In this document: in pieces, positions 4,463 to 13,790 of the stretch | Layout of the letters: the number at the start of each line of letters is the position of its first letter | Numbering within the stretch: the first letter of the stretch is position 1 | Virus record (IMG/VR): IMGVR_UViG_2703718831_000001 | From: a virus | Taxonomy: Duplodnaviria > Heunggongvirae > Uroviricota > Caudoviricetes | DNA: 23,294 nt | Direction: 5' to 3' (one strand) | The notes under the pieces: generated by a model | What the model saw: only the letters and a program-made list of their open reading frames with translations | The model's database searches: none | What the model was told of the DNA's origin: nothing | Position numbers and translations under genes: made by a program

Positions 4463-5289
4463 AAGAAATGCACCACGGAATTCATCATTTCCATGGGACG
4501 CCTGTCTGGGGAAGTGCTGGCGACGTTCATCGTATTGCGGTGAGCGGAGCTGGCGCTTTCGTCTCCTATGTACGACCAGATCAGATTGCGGCGTCCATTC
4601 AGCACGCTCAGGTCGTCGGCATTGATAACGGCGCATTTTCTGCATGGGTGCGTGGGCTAAAAATTAACTGGAGTGATTTTTATAAATGGCTCCTGAACTA
4701 TTACCACCATCCTAAGGTCGCTTTTTTTGTCATTCCTGATGTTGTGGACGGAGGTGAACGTGACAATGATGCCCTGATAAACGAAGTTCCGAAAATGTTC
4801 TACGGGAAGGCAACTCCCGTCTGGCATCTGCACGAGTCAATCGATCGGCTTATCGAGCTATGTCGTGAATGGCCTCGTGTCTGCTTTGGATCGTCTGGTG
4901 AATATGCGGCTATCAGAACTGCGCACTGGCATCGTCGTATGCAGGACGCTTTTGAAGCAATTTATTGCCGACACAATTTCAAAACAGCTGTTCATGGTTT
5001 GCGCATGCTTGACGGTCGTGTGTTGGGAAATTACCCACTGGCGACTGCCGACAGTACAAATCTTGCCTGCAATGTCCCCAAATTTAATAGCAAATATCCT
5101 GAGCTGACGCGGGCTATTCAGGAGGCTGAGTATTCGCGCAATCTGACGGAAAAGGAGCTGAAAGCTGTCATTCTGAAAAACCGTTGCGCAATTTTAAAAG
5201 GTGCAATTGAAGCTGTTCGCCCACCTTCAGTTTCTGATTGGCTGTCGAATGGTTTGCAGCCTTCACAGCTCGAACTGGAGATTGCGTAA
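4459..5289 (+). CDS. Unassigned 276-aa protein; possibly a TGT-fold (DpdA-like) DNA transglycosylase
   Basis: ORF coupled to dam (GTGA overlap) and to gene A (TAATG overlap). Motifs in TGT-like order: VGIDNGAFS (cf. TDSGGFQ), [25 protein letters not shown] (cf. GIDMFDCV). No C-terminal zinc motif. The family call rests on motif resemblance only. Confidence 0.35.
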
Positions 5290-7661
5290 TGAACTACAGC
5301 TATTCCTGGAATGCTGAGAAAAAAGCAATCAATCCTTACGTAGAGACAGAAGAGCAATCTTCAGTTTCTGCGCTTTCAAACCTGATCGCTCTGTACGCTG
5401 CCGATAACGAGCAGGAACAGCTGCGCCGCGAGGCACTGAGTGATCAGGTCTGGGAGCGTTATTTCTTTAATGAATCCCGTGATCCTGTCCAGCGCGAAAT
5501 GGAGCAGGATAAGCTCATTAGTCGGGCAAAGCTGGCGCATGAGCAGCAGCGTTTTAATCCAGATATGGTCATTCTGGCGGACGTCAATGCCCAGCCTTCC
5601 CATATCAGCAAGCCACTGATGCAACGTATTGAATACTTCAGCAGCCTGGGCAGGCCAAAGGCTTATTCCCGCTATTTGCGTGAGACGATTAAGCCATGTC
5701 TGGAACGGCTGGAGCATGTACGCGACTGTCAGCTATCCACTTCTTTTCGCTTTATGGCAAGCCATGAAGGGCTGGACGGCCTGCTGATCCTGCCTGAAAT
5801 GAGTCAGGATCAGGTGAAACGCCTGTCCACCCTGGTAGCTGCGCATATGAGCATGTGCCTTGATGCAGCTTGTGGCGATTTGTATGTCACCGATGACGTT
5901 AAGCCAGAAGAAATCCGCAAGACATGGGAAAAGGTGGCAGCGGAAACCCTGCGTCTGGATGTCATCCCGCCTGCGTTTGAGCAACTCCGCCGGAAAAGAA
6001 ACCGCCGTAAACCCGTGCCCTATGAACTCATTCCGGGTTCGCTGGCGCGTATGTTGTGCGCTGACTGGTGGTACCGGAAATTATGGAAGATGCGTTGCGA
6101 ATGGCGGGAAGAGCAGTTGCGTGCTGTCTGCCTGGTCAGCAAAAAAGCATCTCCCTATGTCAGCTATGAAGCCGTGATGCATAAACGTGAGCAGCGCCGT
6201 AAGTCGCTGGAGTTTTTTCGTTCTCATGAACTGGTGAACGAAGACGGCGACACGCTGGACATGGAGGATGTGGTAAACGCCAGCAGCAGCAACCCTGCGC
6301 ATCGCCGCAATGAGATGATGGCCTGTGTTAAAGGCCTGGAGCTTATCGCGGAAATGCGCGGTGACTGCGCCGTTTTCTACACCATCACCTGTCCGTCACG
6401 TTTCCATTCCACGCTAAATAATGGCAGGCCCAACCCAACTTGGACAAATGCGACGGTAAGACAAAGCAGTGATTATCTGGTCGGCATGTTTGCTGCATTT
6501 CGTAAGGCGATGCACAAAGCCGGATTGCGGTGGTATGGCGTGCGGGTGGCTGAGCCGCATCATGACGGTACAGTTCACTGGCACCTGTTGTGTTTTATGC
6601 GCAAAAAAGACCGCCGCGCCATCACTGCATTACTGCGTAAGTTTGCCATCCGTGAAGACCGTGAGGAACTGGGCAATAACACTGGGCCGCGCTTTAAGTC
6701 TGAGTTGATTAACCCGCGCAAAGGTACGCCAACAAGCTACATCGCGAAATACATCAGTAAGAACATTGACGGGCGTGGTCTGGCTGGCGAGATCAGCAAG
6801 GAAACGGGGAAATCCCTGCGTGATAATGCTGAATACGTTAATGCCTGGGCGTCTCTGCATCGTGTTCAGCAATTCCGCTTCTTTGGCATTCCGGGGCGTC
6901 AGGCTTACCGTGAACTGCGATTGCTGGCTGGTCAGGCGGCAAGGCAACAGGGGGACAAAAAAGCAGGTGCGCCGGTACTGGATAACCCGCGCCTTGATGC
7001 CATCCTGGCTGCTGCTGATGCTGGTTGTTTTGCCACCTACATCATGAAGCAGGGCGGCGTACTGGTTCCCCGCAAATATCACCTCATCAGAACCGCTTAT
7101 GAAATCAACGAAGAGCCGACCGCCTATGGCGATCACGGCATTCGTATTTATGGCATCTGGTCACCTATTGCAGAGGGCAAGATCTGCACTCATGCCGTGA
7201 AGTGGAAAATGGTTCGTAAGGCCGTTGATGTTCAGGAGGCGGCAGCCGACCAGGGCGCTTGCGCCCCTTGGACTCGTGGCAATAACTGTCCCCTTGCTGA
7301 AAATTTGTACCAACAAGGGAAAGACAAATCAGCTGATGGAGATACCAGAACGGATATCACCCGCATGGATGACAAGGAGTTGCACGATTACCTGCACAGT
7401 ATGAGCAAAAAAGAGCGCCGGGAACTGGCAGCAAGGTTACGCCTGGTGAAACCGAAACGGCGTAAAGACTACAAACAGCGAATTACAGACCATCAGCGAC
7501 TGCAGCTCGTGTATGAACTGAAGTCCAGGGGATTTGATGGCAGCGAGAAAGAGGTCGATTTACTCCTTCGCGGCGGCAGTATTCCGTCAGGAGCAGGCCT
7601 GCGTATCTTCTATCGGAACCAGCGTTTGCAGGAAGATGATAAGTGGCGAAACCTGTATTAA
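5289..7661 (+). CDS. A: Replication initiation protein A (rolling-circle nicking endonuclease), P2 gpA family
   Basis: 790-aa ORF from the ATG at 5289 (overlapping the upstream stop). Contains an HUH-type metal motif ([13 protein letters not shown]) and a catalytic-tyrosine motif (SYIAKYISK). Size and position match P2/186 gene A. Confidence 0.9.
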
Positions 7662-8246: not shown

Positions 8247-8457
8247 GAAACGTTGCTGGCGTCTGAACCTGCTTCTGGCGTCAGCAAGGTTGAACCGCGA
8301 GCCTTGAGAGGCGTTAACCATAAGTAAAAAGACAGTAATCACTTGATTATCTATCAGGGCGAGACCTATGCTGCACTTTTAGTTATAACTCATAATGTAT
8401 TGAAATTATTAGAATATATGTCATTCTTAAAATGTGTATGCTTATCAAGGAGCAAGA

Positions 8458-9330
8458 ATGAAACGTGGCATTGTAGCTAATCCTAATGAAATGAGTTTTC
8501 ATAGAAATAATAGTACGGTCTATCTTGGGGCAGGTTTAACTGAGCAGGATATTAATTATTTCTGCTTTTACTGGGATGATGTGGTTATTCTAGATAGTGA
8601 AAATATTCACTCGATTGTGCCTAAAGAAAAAGAATTATTAGATAATGGGGTATTACGTAGACCTATTATGAAACATGATGGTATGCTGAATATCCAAGAC
8701 TTTCCATTTTTATATACGGAATTTCAGTTGCAGACATTGGATGAATTCAGGAAGAACGAGCCTGCTACTTATTGGCACTTTCATCAAACAGGGGAGAATT
8801 TAATATATGATAAAGAACAGAAAACGGCCCTTCAGTTGAGATTGGAGTTGTTTAATGTTCTGAGAATTCCTGATAAAGATGCTCATATAGAAGATATATT
8901 ACGTTTTAAAGATGATTGTCAGGATGATCTTAATGCGTTACATGAGTACTTAGAAAAACTGTATACTGAAGTCCTTTATTCTAGAGACCCTAATCTAACG
9001 AGGGCTAAAAATTTTTCTTTATTACAAGAGGCTGTAGTTAATCTTGATAAAGCTATCGAAGGGAAATGGAGAAATCCTATCAGAATGGGAGTCAAAGTTA
9101 ATCCAGAAGTAGATGGTGGGCAGGTTATGGAATTTTTAAAACCGTTGTACCATGCTGCTATTGCTGGTGATTCAGGCGGTATTATTCCCGGTATGGTTAC
9201 AGCCTTGGCAACCGCAATTCCAAGTTTTATAAAATTCCAACCAGAATGGGTGGGCTTTAGAGATAAGGGGCCTAAAGAATTAGCTTATCTTACCAAAGCA
9301 ACGCATAAGGGGTTGATTAAGAGAGCTTAA
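8458..9330 (+). CDS. Hypothetical 291-aa cargo protein in the gene A-cos accessory locus; contains a GDSGG motif
   Basis: ORF from the ATG at 8458 with AGGAG RBS, in a markedly AT-rich segment unlike the phage backbone. No recognisable family. C-terminal AIAGDSGGIIPG resembles a serine-hydrolase nucleophile motif. Confidence 0.6.
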   Translation: MKRGIVANPNEMSFHRNNSTVYLGAGLTEQDINYFCFYWDDVVILDSENIHSIVPKEKELLDNGVLRRPIMKHDGMLNIQDFPFLYTEFQLQTLDEFRKNEPATYWHFHQTGENLIYDKEQKTALQLRLELFNVLRIPDKDAHIEDILRFKDDCQDDLNALHEYLEKLYTEVLYSRDPNLTRAKNFSLLQEAVVNLDKAIEGKWRNPIRMGVKVNPEVDGGQVMEFLKPLYHAAIAGDSGGIIPGMVTALATAIPSFIKFQPEWVGFRDKGPKELAYLTKATHKGLIKRA

Positions 9331-9432
9331 GGCATTTTAATCGATTTTCGCAACTATATTCCTTCGTAACCACACAAGTGCATGACTATGCCGCATGAAT
9401 CCGCATGATCGTTTGAGGATCGTTTTAGCTGA

Positions 9433-9460
9433 GGCCCGCTAGGAATGGCGGGCCTTTGCT
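9433..9460 (+). terminator. GC-rich hairpin followed by a short T-tract (putative terminator)
   Basis: GGCCCGC (9433-9439) / GCGGGCC (9448-9454) perfect 7-bp stem with an 8-nt loop, followed by TTTGCTT. Confidence 0.45.
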
Positions 9461-9502
9461 TATGTCATGCAGGCGCATGAAAACCACTACATAAAGCGGG
9501 CA

Positions 9503-9521
9503 GGCGTGGCGGGGATACGAG
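9503..9521. other. Candidate cos cohesive-end sequence (GGCGTGGCGGGGATACGAG)
   Basis: The first 13 nt match my recollection of the 186/P2 cohesive ends (GGCGTGGCGGGGAAAGCAT / GGCGAGGCGGGGAAAGCAC). It lies in a GC-rich island between two AT-rich cargo segments, with gene Q oriented toward it. It is about 1.5 kb from Q, farther than in P2. Confidence 0.35.
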
Positions 9522-9660
9522 CGCGCGTTGTGGCTTGCAGCGGTGATTCTTTACATAGTGTTATCTTGAATTTATTGTAGCATTTTCGTAACAAACTAAG
9601 GTTCTTCGATTGCATAGATAGGAAAAAGTGTTTGTTTGTTAGTCACTGCTTGATTACACT

Positions 9661-9681
9661 CGTCTACTCTTGAAGTAGACG
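9661..9681. promoter_or_regulatory. Perfect 8-bp inverted repeat CGTCTACT-N5-AGTAGACG upstream of the three-gene cargo operon
   Basis: Palindrome ending about 57 bp upstream of the 9738 start codon: candidate operator or RNA hairpin. Confidence 0.35.
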
Positions 9682-9737
9682 ATAGGTATTCGCTAGCACT
9701 TTAGGGTAATCAAACAACCTGTAAAGAGAGGATTATT

Positions 9738-10310
9738 GTGCAGGTAGTTCATATAGGGTTTCATAACTGCCTTAATCGTGGCAGTTATGAGACGATACGG
9801 CAAAGCGTACCCTTTTTAAGCCGTTCAGGCCCTAAACAATGGTTAACTCAAGGTTACTATTTTTGGACTGATGACCCATACTGGGCTCATCAGTGGAACG
9901 AAGGTCATGATACGGTGATTAGTGAATTTTCTATCACCTTTGATTCAAAGGATGAGTTGCTTGATTTGGTTGGAAATGCTCGAGATATCAGGCAATTTGA
10001 AGCTATGCGTCAGAAAGTTGCCAGTACTTTGACTCGAATGAGCGCCTTGCATATCACAGTCAATCAGGTCATTAGCTTTTTTAGAGAGCTCGAGCAATCT
10101 GATGATTTTAAAGGCGTATTTCCATATGCTGCTGTTAAGGCACAAGATAGTACGAAAGTGTCTAATCTTATAAGACTTAACTTTGTAGATGAGCGCCCAG
10201 AACAGATGGTTTCATTTACCCGTCAGCAAATGTGTGTTTATGAACATGCTCGAGGTAAGATAGAGTTTAGAAGATTTATCTTTCCAGAGCATTTCTGTGA
10301 GAAGGATTAA
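9738..10310 (+). CDS. Hypothetical protein, first gene of a three-gene cargo operon
   Basis: 190-aa ORF with GTG start and AGAGAGGA RBS 5 nt upstream. AT-rich. No recognisable motif. Confidence 0.55.
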   Translation: MQVVHIGFHNCLNRGSYETIRQSVPFLSRSGPKQWLTQGYYFWTDDPYWAHQWNEGHDTVISEFSITFDSKDELLDLVGNARDIRQFEAMRQKVASTLTRMSALHITVNQVISFFRELEQSDDFKGVFPYAAVKAQDSTKVSNLIRLNFVDERPEQMVSFTRQQMCVYEHARGKIEFRRFIFPEHFCEKD

Positions 10311-10319
10311 GGAGGAAAA

Positions 10320-10553
10320 ATGCTTTCCTTTGAACAAAGAATGGCCTTACTTAACAAGGCATTACAGCAGTATACTCCTGAGTCGCTTTATGAAAAATTA
10401 AGCTCGTACCCGGCTTATGGACCAACAATCGTAAGCTACGAGCTTCCAAGCTCTGAAGGGTTCATTACATTGAGACCACGTCTGATCAATCATGCTGCTG
10501 AACGTTCAGTGGATTTCTTTTCAGATGATACTGAATTGGATTTAGCGGCCTGA
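10320..10553 (+). CDS. Hypothetical small protein, second gene of the cargo operon
   Basis: 77-aa ORF with a strong GGAGG RBS, 9 nt after the upstream stop. Confidence 0.5.
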   Translation: MLSFEQRMALLNKALQQYTPESLYEKLSSYPAYGPTIVSYELPSSEGFITLRPRLINHAAERSVDFFSDDTELDLAA

Positions 10554-10555
10554 CG

Positions 10556-10945
10556 ATGAAACTAAGATTACGGGATAATACTGTTACTCGACTGTTGTTT
10601 GTCGATGCTGAAGGGCGCAAAATCGAATCTGGTTTTGCGCTTCGATTTAAGCCCATTTTTGATGAAAATCCGCGCGAATTTTCAGTATTGTTTGATTTTT
10701 ATTACATTACTGAGAATGATCGGGCATTACGAGTCGAGTTTCAAAGTGTTTTTGAAACAGATAAAGACATTGACGATTCTTTTAAAGAATCGAAGTTTCC
10801 AGTTGTTAATGCTCCTGCGATATCGTTCCCGTTTTTACGTTCGTTTGTTGCCAATTTTTTGATGACAAGTGGGTATACACCGATCCTGCTTCCTAGCTTT
10901 AACTTTACAACTTTTGAACAGGATATCGGGAAGTTTCCTAACTGA
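10556..10945 (+). CDS. Hypothetical protein, third gene of the cargo operon
   Basis: 129-aa ORF whose ATG lies 2 nt after the upstream stop (TGACGATG), followed directly by a terminator. Confidence 0.5.
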   Translation: MKLRLRDNTVTRLLFVDAEGRKIESGFALRFKPIFDENPREFSVLFDFYYITENDRALRVEFQSVFETDKDIDDSFKESKFPVVNAPAISFPFLRSFVANFLMTSGYTPILLPSFNFTTFEQDIGKFPN

Positions 10946-10946
10946 G

Positions 10947-10976
10947 AAAAGGGCTATGTTTAGCCCTTTTTTATTA
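10947..10976. terminator. Rho-independent terminator, likely bidirectional (cargo operon and gene Q)
   Basis: GGGCTA / TAGCCC stem (10951-10966) flanked by AAAA upstream and TTTTTTATT downstream, between convergent ORFs. Confidence 0.6.
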
Positions 10977-10983
10977 AGTTGAT

Positions 10984-12027
10984 TCAATTTTTATCTAAGC
11001 TCATGGTGTAAGGCTCGAAGCGGATCACTTCTTCACCAAGCCAGTCGTTAAGCTCCTGTAGCCTTTTCTGTAGTGGGATAAGTTCGTTGCGAACAAAAAC
11101 TTTGCTGGCTTTCTCTACATCCCCAAAACCCCCAACATTATTCGGCATAATCCCCATCATCTGTGGCGGAACACGATGCGCGGCCATCATGTCATCACGA
11201 CTCACGTTCTTGATGTTCAGAAATTCATCTTTCGCTGCGACTTCTGACAACGGGATGATCTGAAGCCCGTCCTTTTTGCCGTTAGGCGAGTACATAAACA
11301 GGTTGCGGAAGTTACCCGGTCCTTTGGCGCTTTTCATCGCGTGGCGGAGGTTGTTCACGTCCTCCTGGTTCTGCGCGGCATCGGTCATGTACATGATGAA
11401 GCCAGCATGACTGCCGTTTATGTAATACTTTCGACGGAACAGCGTGGCGGACTCATTGAGCAGGGCGGACGGAATAGCAGAAAGATAGCCGGGCAGGCCA
11501 TAGATCTCCTGATTTATGTCCGGTTCCATCAGATGGAAAATGCTGCCTTTCGTGAACTGATACGGCTGCGTGGTCATGCCGTATTGCACAAACCAGTAGG
11601 TATCCAGGTCTAACCCGCGTCGGGTGTATTTTGCCAGCGCAGGCTCAAGGGCGATAACTTCACCGAAGCGGTTAGTGCGTTTCTCCAGGTAGGCGTTACC
11701 AAATACCAGATAGTCCTGCACAAAACGCGAAAAAGCCTGCTGGCTGAGCAGCGGGTGAGGGATGTAGGTGCTGGTCAGAATGTTGCATTTCACCGCAATT
11801 GGTGAACTGTGATGCACGGCAGCGCGGAAGGTGCGCGCCAGTCCGTCAAAGCTGACAGGAGGCTCATACCAGCGATCTGTCTGTACGCATTCCACATAGT
11901 CCAGCAGTTCGCGGCGGTCAAGTACAGGAACGGGATCACCGAAGCTGAATGCTTCGGCTGAAGTCTGGCTTTTATGCTTGAGCTGATTCGTCGCCGCAGC
12001 GCGGTTTTTCTTACTCTTTCCCATCAA
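10984..12027 (-). CDS. Q: Portal protein, P2 gpQ family
   Basis: 347-aa ORF, same size as P2 gpQ, coupled to the upstream terminase ATPase gene and lying beside the cos-like region. Confidence 0.85.
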   Translation of the reverse strand: MMGKSKKNRAAATNQLKHKSQTSAEAFSFGDPVPVLDRRELLDYVECVQTDRWYEPPVSFDGLARTFRAAVHHSSPIAVKCNILTSTYIPHPLLSQQAFSRFVQDYLVFGNAYLEKRTNRFGEVIALEPALAKYTRRGLDLDTYWFVQYGMTTQPYQFTKGSIFHLMEPDINQEIYGLPGYLSAIPSALLNESATLFRRKYYINGSHAGFIMYMTDAAQNQEDVNNLRHAMKSAKGPGNFRNLFMYSPNGKKDGLQIIPLSEVAAKDEFLNIKNVSRDDMMAAHRVPPQMMGIMPNNVGGFGDVEKASKVFVRNELIPLQKRLQELNDWLGEEVIRFEPYTMSLDKN

Positions 12028-13790
12028 AAAATCTCCACAATATTGCTGGTATTGGCGGACTCGCCCTGCAGCGGTTCGTTAAACAGTGCGTGCATCGTTG
12101 CCCAGGCCAGATCGGCGTGGCTGGCTTCTTCGCTGCGGCTGGCTTCATAGGTCGGGCGGTTGCCACTGGCGGTGGTGGCGCGACGGATTGCCATAAATGA
12201 CTGCGCTATGTCGGTGTGTCCGGCGTCAAACTCCAGACGACGGTGACTGATAATGTCGTAGGCTTTGAGTACCAGGGCGTTTTTAACGTTGGGGTTGTAG
12301 ACAAACTCCCGGACGGCAGGAAAGAACGCTTTCACGTTCTCGTAAACCCCGTGACCGACACCTGTTGAGTCGATGCCGATATAGGTCACGTTGTACTGTT
12401 CGGTCAGTTTTTTGATGGCGTCAGCCTGGGCGCGGAAGTCCATCCCGCGCCACTGGTGACGCTCAAGAATGCGAAACTTACCGCCTGGCACGGCTGGCGG
12501 TGCCACCACCACGCATCCGGCGCTGTCGCCGTTCTGCGTACCTTTTGCCGGGTCATAACCGATCCACACCTCGCGCCAGCCAAACGGGCGCAGGGCCAGT
12601 GCATGAAAGTCGGTCCAGACTTCCCAACTGTCCACCATGCACGCCTGCAGTTCGCTGAGCGGGAACACGGACGCGAGATCGTCCACGAACTCGCACATCA
12701 GCAGGTTCTGGTATTCGTCCGGGCTGTACTCCATGCGTAGCTGGTCGAGGTCGAACAGGTTACAGCCGCCGCGCACCGCATCTTCCACGGTGACTATCTG
12801 GCGGTATTGCCCGTCTGCGCACAGCAGGCCGGGGGCCAGATTGCTGTGGGACAGGTCGATGTCCACCTTGTCGGCTTTGTTGCGTCCACGGTTGAACAGC
12901 GCACCGGACCAGAACGGATAAGCACTGTGGGTCAGGCTGGATGGCGTGGAAAAATAGGTTTGTCGCCATTTTTTGTGAATAGCCATACCGGAAGCCACTT
13001 TACGCAACTCCTGAAATTTCGGTATCCAGAAATATTCATCCAGATACAGGTTGCCGTGATAACTCTGGGCAGTGCGGGCATTGGTGCCGAGGAAGTAAAG
13101 CGTGGCACCGTTAGGAAGCACCATCGGATCACCTTTCAGCTCCACCTCCACTTCTTTGGCGAAGTCGATGATGTACTGCTTAAAGACGTGGGCCTGTGCC
13201 TTGCTGGCGGAAAGGAAAATCTGGTTACGTCCGGTCAGCAGGGCGTCAATCAGGGCTTCACGGGCAAAATAGAAGGTTGCGCCGATCTGGCGTGACTTCA
13301 GCAGGTTGCGGATGCGGTTGGTTTTTCCGGCTTCCCACCAGTGGCGCTGGTAGTTGAACATGGAGGAATGGAAGATTTCTTCCAGCTTCTCAATCTGTTC
13401 ATCGGTGAAAACATTCTTTTCCGGCTGACGGCGTGGGCCTTTGTTGCGGTTGGCGACGTTAGGGTTTAAGTCGGCTTCGTTGCCGCCATTGTTAAACTTG
13501 CCGATCCGCGCGTGGCGCTCCGACTGGCGCGCCAGCAGGTCAATCTCTTTGAAATCTTTCCCTTCTTTGTGCTCCTTCATAATGAGCTGGCAGTAGCGTG
13601 CGGCGGTGGTGAGCTGCATCTGATCCAGCGGCCCATAGTCACCCCACTTGTCGCGTTTTTTCCAGCTGTGAACAGTTGCAACTTTCTCGCCCAGCATTTC
13701 AGCAATGCGGGCGACGCGGTATCCCTGAAAGTACAGCAGCATGGCCTGCCGACGGGGATCGAGATCTGCGGGTGTCAGTGTGGTGTTCAT
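12024..13790 (-). CDS. P: Terminase large (ATPase) subunit, P2 gpP family
   Basis: 588-aa ORF (P2 gpP is about 590 aa) in a P-Q operon divergent from O-N-M. Confidence 0.85.
   Translation of the reverse strand: MNTTLTPADLDPRRQAMLLYFQGYRVARIAEMLGEKVATVHSWKKRDKWGDYGPLDQMQLTTAARYCQLIMKEHKEGKDFKEIDLLARQSERHARIGKFNNGGNEADLNPNVANRNKGPRRQPEKNVFTDEQIEKLEEIFHSSMFNYQRHWWEAGKTNRIRNLLKSRQIGATFYFAREALIDALLTGRNQIFLSASKAQAHVFKQYIIDFAKEVEVELKGDPMVLPNGATLYFLGTNARTAQSYHGNLYLDEYFWIPKFQELRKVASGMAIHKKWRQTYFSTPSSLTHSAYPFWSGALFNRGRNKADKVDIDLSHSNLAPGLLCADGQYRQIVTVEDAVRGGCNLFDLDQLRMEYSPDEYQNLLMCEFVDDLASVFPLSELQACMVDSWEVWTDFHALALRPFGWREVWIGYDPAKGTQNGDSAGCVVVAPPAVPGGKFRILERHQWRGMDFRAQADAIKKLTEQYNVTYIGIDSTGVGHGVYENVKAFFPAVREFVYNPNVKNALVLKAYDIISHRRLEFDAGHTDIAQSFMAIRRATTASGNRPTYEASRSEEASHADLAWATMHALFNEPLQGESANTSNIVEIF

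Follow-up and report, generated by a model that had tools for sequence, protein, structure and literature searches.

The 23,294-nucleotide stretch of viral DNA that was analyzed here, hereafter the window (IMG/VR record IMGVR_UViG_2703718831_000001, Caudoviricetes), is a P2/186-like prophage in which integrase, CI repressor, gpA, a DinI-like gene, a DUF6236 gene, a three-gene operon, the portal gene and the large terminase gene follow one another in this order. The operon, which is the subject of this report, consists of three open reading frames (ORFs) on the plus strand between positions 9738 and 10945 that encode proteins of 190, 77 and 129 aa. An earlier note had described these proteins as devoid of recognizable domains and had proposed that they form a sensor/effector or toxin-antitoxin-like anti-phage cassette in a defense hotspot. 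The data now indicate that the operon is very probably an allele of CmdTAC (PD-T4-9), a tripartite toxin-antitoxin-chaperone (TAC) abortive-infection system, carried as a cassette between the cohesive-end site (cos) and the portal gene of the prophage. PD-T4-9 was found in E. coli ECOR22 (Vassallo et al. 2022, PMC9519451), and its mechanism was subsequently described under the name CmdTAC (Vassallo, Doering & Laub 2024, PMC11618068). As such, the novelty that the earlier note implied has to be given up: the system was characterized between 2022 and 2024, and the locus in the window is an allelic variant of it.

Genes and proteins of the operon

The first gene, cmdT (ORF1, 9738-10310), encodes the ADP-ribosyltransferase toxin of 190 aa from a GTG start, and a Shine-Dalgarno-like GAGAGGA stands 5 nt upstream of this codon on the plus strand (9726-9732). 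The antitoxin gene cmdA (ORF2, 10320-10553, 77 aa) begins with ATG behind a 9-nt spacer, GGAGGAAAA (10311-10319), that holds its Shine-Dalgarno sequence. The third gene, cmdC (ORF3, 10556-10945, 129 aa), encodes the SecB-like chaperone and phage sensor, and is separated from cmdA by a 2-nt gap within the stop/start junction TGACGATG (10551-10558), at which the two genes are likely to be translationally coupled. Read directly from the sequence, the three ORFs, the 9-nt gap and the cmdA/cmdC junction are present as first described. Compared with the 92.6%-identical allele of E. coli N2250, dN/dS amounts to 0.06, 0.07 and 0.03 for cmdT, cmdA and cmdC, respectively, which indicates that all three ORFs are real genes under purifying selection. 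The published numbering of Y41 fits the 190-aa GTG start of cmdT. Some CmdT alleles in RefSeq are 192 aa long and start from an ATT two codons upstream (MIVQVV...; 9732-9740 in the window). In addition, a 14-nt inverted repeat, GTTTCATAACTGCC / GGCAGTTATGAGAC, is found at 9758-9793 (93% complementary, 8-nt gap), among the first 20 codons of cmdT, where it overlaps the H9 codon and might affect initiation of toxin translation.

The PADLOC profiles for PD-T4-9 match all three proteins from end to end. Specifically, PD-T4-9_A matches CmdT (E 2.8e-96, residues 2-189 of 190), PD-T4-9_B matches CmdA (E 5.1e-39, residues 1-77 of 77) and PD-T4-9_C matches CmdC (E 1.1e-60, residues 1-128 of 129). Together with a SecB match in ORF3 and an ADP-ribosyltransferase fold in ORF1, these matches contradict the initial description of the proteins as lacking recognizable domains. 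General family collections return far less: Pfam and NCBIfam contain nothing significant for ORF1 or ORF2, and PHROGs has no match for these two ORFs and matches ORF3 with families of unknown function only.

An alignment of 35 CmdT homologues (29-79% identity) reveals fourteen invariant positions, namely H9, C11, P25, W35, G39, Y41, W43, T44, D45, W53, D76, L77, G79 and Q164. Three of them, H9, Y41 and Q164 (codons at 9762-9764, 9858-9860 and 10227-10229, plus strand), fit the H-Y-[E/D/Q] triad reported by the authors of the system (PMC11618068). In the AlphaFold2 prediction, which like the other structure prediction reported here is a monomer model, CmdT reaches a pLDDT of 93.9 and a pTM of 0.89, the triad residues are placed on beta-strands, and fold comparison finds similarity to MbcT, RES and DarT. 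The model gives CmdT the fold of an ADP-ribosyltransferase, and its H-Y-Q triad, which includes the catalytic Y41, is invariant.

CmdA consists of N-terminal helices and an aromatic-rich C-terminal tail. It has no domain match and no recognizable DNA-binding antitoxin domain in Pfam or NCBIfam. The aromatic residues of the tail (Y30, Y33, Y40, F48, F66 and F67) are consistent with a chaperone-addiction (ChAD) element, and the protein ends in ...TELDLAA, with the L-A-A codons at 10542-10550. For CmdA, an LAA end that acts as a ClpXP degron, dependence on ClpP and a disordered tail have been described (PMC11618068).

CmdC matches the Pfam family SecB with an E-value of 1.7e-5 and 25.2 bits, just below the 26-bit cut-off and marginal when taken alone, and the family is matched by 23/23 of the CmdC homologues tested, with a best E-value of 2e-12. 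The AlphaFold2 model of CmdC (pLDDT 87) finds its best Foldseek match in Rv1957, the TAC chaperone of M. tuberculosis, in a structure with a bound ChAD peptide (5mtw; E ~1e-6, probability 1.00), followed by the SecB proteins of E. coli and H. influenzae. CmdC is a SecB-like chaperone of the TAC type. It stays far below the equivalog cut-offs of the NCBIfam/TIGRFAM SecB models (103-223 bits), with a best score of 27.3 against a cut-off of 143 and a score of 18.1 against 102.8 for TIGR00809, so that the RefSeq name 'protein-export chaperone SecB' (WP_061089971) is an over-annotation. Across RefSeq, the proteins of this operon carry either this name or 'hypothetical protein', and the locus is thereby easily taken for something unknown.

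Relation to the ECOR22 system and distribution

The characterized ECOR22 system lies on contig QOXH01000008 at 116077-117290 and encodes proteins RCP66309-11.1. The P2-hotspot table of Rousset et al. 2022 lists the ECOR22 contig as '... + hypothetical + hypothetical + SecB', with WP_087898297, WP_087898296 and WP_087898295 as the last accessions, and the latter two are the CmdA and CmdC proteins annotated in strain N2250. The window CmdA is identical to WP_087898296, the ECOR22 CmdA, at 74 of 77 positions (96%), and the window CmdC to WP_087898295, the ECOR22 CmdC, at 126 of 129 (98%). For CmdT, the ECOR22 protein (RCP66309.1 / WP_087898297) was approached through two proxies, the CmdT of N2250 and a published primer. 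The N2250 protein, an ECOR22-type allele, shares 179 of 190 residues (94%) with the window CmdT, and the N2250 operon is 1214 nt long, equal to that of ECOR22. The mutagenic primer CV109, published for the Y41A exchange, corresponds exactly to N2250 except at the exchanged codon and at a 1-nt gap within a run of A. In the window it aligns to 9828-9888, where the mutated codon falls on TAT at 9858-9860 and three further differences are all synonymous. The ECOR22 system resembles the window in its genes and their order, in their lengths when counted from GTG, in the catalytic Y41 and in the LAA end of CmdA, and it likewise occupies the hypervariable cos-proximal region of a P2-like prophage.

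That the window might be ECOR22 itself was considered and rejected, since the ECOR22 primer shows three synonymous mismatches to the window over 60 nt and CmdA and CmdC differ by three residues each. Overall, the window allele diverges from the ECOR22-type allele by ~7% at the DNA level, with 11 substitutions in CmdT, three in CmdA (T19N, L55V and A60T) and three in CmdC (T11N, V60I and K126E), and none of these 17 amino-acid differences falls on an invariant position. Because it is 94-98% identical, retains the invariant residues and matches in architecture and location, the window allele is inferred to behave like that of ECOR22.

The three genes also travel together well beyond E. coli. When one genome per species was scanned, 17 loci with a CmdT homologue (25-99% identity) were recovered, from Escherichia, Lelliottia, Planctobacterium, Pseudoalteromonas, Methylococcaceae, Methylophaga, Halarcobacter, Ruthturnera, Breznakibacter, Acinetobacter and Psychrobacter. 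In 17/17 of them a SecB-like CmdC homologue is encoded 139-486 nt downstream of the CmdT homologue, and the order of toxin, small ORF and SecB-like gene is likewise kept in every locus, down to 25% CmdT identity. The middle ORF of the distant loci measures 77-152 aa, is variable in sequence and usually has an xAA end, commonly LAA. In most distant loci the middle ORF and the chaperone gene lie -4 to +6 nt apart, and the corresponding gap in the window is 2 nt, preceded by the 9 nt between cmdT and cmdA. A CmdT gene, a small ORF and a gene for a SecB-like chaperone in close succession are what Vassallo et al. 2022 (PMC9519451) used to recognize homologues, and the same arrangement is found in the window. 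The lack of co-occurrence that would have refuted the earlier note is not seen, and its proposal of an anti-phage cassette of the sensor/effector or toxin-antitoxin-like kind, situated in a defense hotspot, is borne out: the cassette is CmdTAC, in which the chaperone is the sensor and the ADP-ribosyltransferase the effector.

At shorter range, proteins identical to those of the window are common in public Escherichia assemblies, and variants within 90% identity occur also in Klebsiella, Lelliottia and Atlantibacter. The operon is present in 3/5426 complete E. coli genomes, and the INPHARED phage collection contains no match to the operon DNA.

Four points weigh against the assignment to CmdTAC or limit its reach. 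First, the identity of the window CmdT to the ECOR22 CmdT is judged through N2250 and the primer only. Second, with 11 differences in CmdT, three in CmdA and three in CmdC from the ECOR22-type allele, the phage range could differ. Third, sequence searches of the Protein Data Bank (PDB) return no relatives, whether single proteins or profiles of the 35 CmdT and 23 CmdC homologues are used, so that fold comparison alone supplied the structural relatives. Fourth, the position of the promoter is tentative. A consensus scan offers a weak sigma-70 candidate, TTTACA-17-TATTGT, at 9550-9578 on the plus strand (9/12 matches), and promoter-like sites are no more frequent in the region than chance predicts (5 sites, with 4.0 +/- 2.1 expected from shuffled sequence), so that no promoter is claimed with confidence. 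The published native-promoter clone took in ~600 bp upstream.

Proposed mechanism and competing explanations

The mechanism has been demonstrated experimentally for the ECOR22 allele and in part for the allele of E. coli O112ab:H26; for the window allele it is deduced from close homology. In the model that follows, the three proteins made from the one operon would form a complex, for which the published prediction is 1 CmdT : 1 CmdA : 4 CmdC. CmdA would aid the folding of CmdT and keep it neutralized, and the CmdC tetramer would hold the disordered, aromatic-rich tail of CmdA, thereby shielding the LAA degron from ClpXP. When a T-even phage infects the cell, its freshly synthesized major capsid protein (Gp23 in T4) would compete for CmdC, and the exposed CmdA would be degraded by ClpXP. 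Free CmdT would then transfer ADP-ribose from NAD+ to single-stranded mRNA, at the N6 of adenine in GA dinucleotides, as a consequence of which translation would stop and no phage progeny would be made.

Several observations on the ECOR22 allele (PMC11618068) stand behind this model. CmdT, CmdA and CmdC co-precipitate; expression of cmdT together with cmdA is toxic and is rescued by cmdC; and CmdC protects CmdA from degradation by ClpP. In T4-infected cells CmdC associates with the major capsid protein, Gp23, and Gp23 together with Gp31 suffices for activation. ADP-ribose is found on mRNA, at the N6 of adenine in GA, and not on protein, DNA, rRNA or tRNA. Translation stops, the burst size falls to about zero and the defense is abortive, and the Y41A exchange abolishes protection. 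Furthermore, a second laboratory, working with a different CmdTAC, observed sequence-specific mRNA modification and dependence on ClpXP (bioRxiv 10.1101/2024.02.24.581848).

Could the operon instead be a plain addiction module, which stabilizes the prophage by post-segregational killing and plays no part in phage defense? Its toxin-antitoxin architecture, the LAA end that makes the antitoxin proteolytically labile and its residence on a mobile element would all suit such a module. Nevertheless, T4 plates at least 1000-fold better once the near-identical ECOR22 system is deleted, K-12 is protected by the operon when cloned, and the slot that the cassette occupies holds other defense genes, such as AIPR, elsewhere, all of which makes addiction without defense very improbable. 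The two roles are not mutually exclusive.

If the operon is taken as CmdTAC, the substrate of its toxin might still be a different one, such that CmdT would deplete NAD+ as MbcT and RES toxins do, or modify DNA as DarT does or protein as diphtheria toxin does. The fold matches to MbcT, RES and DarT allow this in principle. The ECOR22-type protein, by contrast, puts ADP-ribose on mRNA, at the N6 of A in GA, with none detected on protein, DNA, rRNA or tRNA, and the different CmdT of the second laboratory also modified mRNA in a sequence-specific manner. Since H9, Y41 and Q164 are unchanged in the window CmdT, which is 94% identical to the characterized type of enzyme, another substrate is scarcely to be expected.

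Comparison with related systems places CmdTAC, the assignment favored here, more precisely. The system of E. coli O112ab:H26, compared by its description (bioRxiv 10.1101/2024.02.24.581848), shares with it an mRNA-modifying ADP-ribosyltransferase toxin, ClpXP-dependent activation and defense against Tevenvirinae. Unlike the window operon, it resides in a different, unclassified prophage and acts against one siphovirus (Bas34) as well. Classical TAC systems, such as HigB1-HigA1-Rv1957 of M. tuberculosis and MqsRAC and HigBAC of E. coli, have the same order of toxin, antitoxin and chaperone, and in them too a SecB-like chaperone stabilizes the antitoxin through a C-terminal chaperone-addiction tail. 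Their toxins and antitoxins, however, are unrelated to those of CmdTAC, the toxin being an RNase-type HigB or MqsR instead of an ADP-ribosyltransferase. The triggers differ as well, with lambda gpV for HigBAC (bioRxiv 10.1101/2024.02.24.581848) and T4 Gp23 for CmdTAC. DarTG, ParST and MbcTA, in turn, resemble CmdTAC in having an NAD+-using toxin of the ADP-ribosyltransferase fold that is neutralized by a cognate antitoxin, and the structural similarity is detectable. They differ in having two components and no chaperone, and they show no sequence-level similarity to the window proteins. Their toxins also act on other substrates, DarT on thymidine or guanosine of single-stranded DNA, ParT on Prs and MbcT on NAD+ itself.

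The window operon adds little new biology to this picture; one practical point is that the window and ECOR22-type alleles constitute a natural variant pair for trigger specificity. In a speculative and unlikely extension, the substitutions in CmdC, CmdA and CmdT could shift which capsid proteins act as triggers, a P2-like prophage might need to avoid self-triggering by its own capsid on induction, and the palindrome in the leader of the operon (9660-9682) could serve allele-specific regulation, for instance by keeping the operon off during lytic growth.

The cos-flanking slots and their contents

The cassette slot is bordered on the left by cos, the 19-nt cohesive-end sequence GGCGTGGCGGGGATACGAG at 9503-9521, which aligns with the annotated cos of phage 186 (NC_001317, 1-19) and of P2 (NC_001895, 1-19) and whose motif recurs upstream of the Lelliottia cmdTAC. 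Its right border is the portal gene on the minus strand (10984-12027), a homologue of P2 Q and 186 W that matches Pfam Phage_portal and is annotated as portal protein in relatives; the large terminase gene follows at 12024-13790, likewise on the minus strand. Against a sister prophage with an AIPR gene in the slot (strain S163-2), blastn homology extends as far as 9527 and is found again from 11063 onward, within the portal gene. The exchangeable cmdTAC cassette thus spans 9528-11062 (plus strand) and comprises the leader, the three genes, the terminator and the divergent last ~26 portal codons. In phages 186 and P2, only ~145-175 nt lie between cos and the portal stop codon, holding the terminator tW or tQ, compared with a 1.5-kb cassette in the window. 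A side effect is seen in the portal protein, whose last ~20 residues (10984-11062, minus strand) differ between the sister prophages that carry cmdTAC and AIPR: with the right recombination border inside the portal gene, cargo exchange drags the portal C-terminus along.

By its position between gpA (5238-7661) and the portal gene, next to cos, in a slot that is variable among related prophages, the cassette lies in the hotspot of Rousset et al. 2022. The ECOR22 locus is listed in the P2-hotspot table of the same work, and Mets et al. 2024 (bioRxiv 10.1101/2024.02.24.581848) assign the ECOR22 system to the hypervariable part of a P2-like phage. The exact CmdT protein of the window occurs in at least 460 collection blocks, and among the matches listed 10/10 stand in the cos-to-portal slot of the P2-like gpA-gpQ hotspot.

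A role for the operon as accessory genes of phage morphogenesis, for instance a SecB-type chaperone set for capsid or portal assembly within the structural module, could draw on its position beside the portal/terminase operon with a common terminator and on the published binding of capsid protein by the chaperone (PMC11618068), but is next to impossible given that the cassette is absent from P2 and 186, is found in only 3/5426 complete E. coli genomes and gives way to unrelated genes in sister prophages, that distant homologues in diverse non-enterobacterial genomes keep the three-gene order when the three genes themselves are compared, and that ORF1 is a toxin-type ADP-ribosyltransferase. A match to structural or morphogenesis proteins, which would have refuted the earlier note, is not seen; the proteins match the components of CmdTAC.

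The operon was also said to be bounded by a palindrome upstream and a strong terminator downstream, and both features hold up, with perfect arms and folding z-scores of -3.7 and -4.4 against shuffled controls. The leader palindrome, TCGTCTACT / AGTAGACGA, has 9-bp arms at 9660-9668 and 9674-9682 on the plus strand around a 5-nt loop (-15.1 kcal/mol). Its interpretation as a conserved operator was rejected, as the leader of the Lelliottia homologue is unrelated and lacks this palindrome; it is therefore not a defining element of the system, and no role is assigned to it. The terminator (10947-10976) is a hairpin with 10-bp arms at 10947-10956 and 10961-10970, a 4-nt loop and flanking T-runs (-16.3 kcal/mol; -13.1 kcal/mol on the minus strand). 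A simple terminator scan overlooked this hairpin, which folding then confirmed. It sits where the annotated terminators tW of phage 186 and tQ of P2 stand, downstream of the portal gene, and is probably bidirectional, ending cmdTAC on the plus strand and the portal/terminase operon on the minus strand. Rfam recognizes no RNA family anywhere in the window.

The conserved P2-like cos segment at 9377-9529 parts two cargo slots, and the cos-proximal gpA-gpQ hotspot of P2/186 phages is in fact a pair of slots that flank cos and are exchanged independently of each other. While cmdTAC fills the cos-to-portal slot and brings along its own bidirectional terminator and the last portal codons, the DinI-to-cos slot varies independently and is either empty or occupied by DUF6236 or by unknown genes of 372, 225 or 239 aa. 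In the linear genome as packaged, the two cargoes would come to stand at opposite termini, cmdTAC leftmost and the DUF6236 gene rightmost. The other slot also distinguishes the window from ECOR22: it holds the DUF6236 gene in the window, whereas the ECOR22 entry in the table has three 'hypothetical' proteins and DinI before CmdA and the SecB-like CmdC.

The DUF6236 gene (8434-9330, probable start at M9, 8458) is identified by Pfam with an E-value of 1e-20 and belongs to phrog_23128, a family of unknown function. The module of ~8317-9376 that contains it is present in 22/5426 complete E. coli genomes and is exchanged independently of cmdTAC, as its pairing with an AIPR gene in strain S163-2 illustrates. 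DUF6236 is entry 125 (23 loci) in the P2-hotspot table of Rousset et al., with the remaining columns blank. The gene has no PADLOC match, and a literature search found no mention of DUF6236. It is regarded here as a candidate defense gene.

A further site of variation concerns the integrase and CI repressor genes. In the window, the integrase gene is followed directly by the CI repressor gene (1-1660), and an otherwise near-identical prophage of MFDS1006657 has three extra genes between the two, encoding an ASCH-domain protein, a frameshifted N-acetyltransferase and a hypothetical protein. The integrase-CI interval is another variable site of this phage family.

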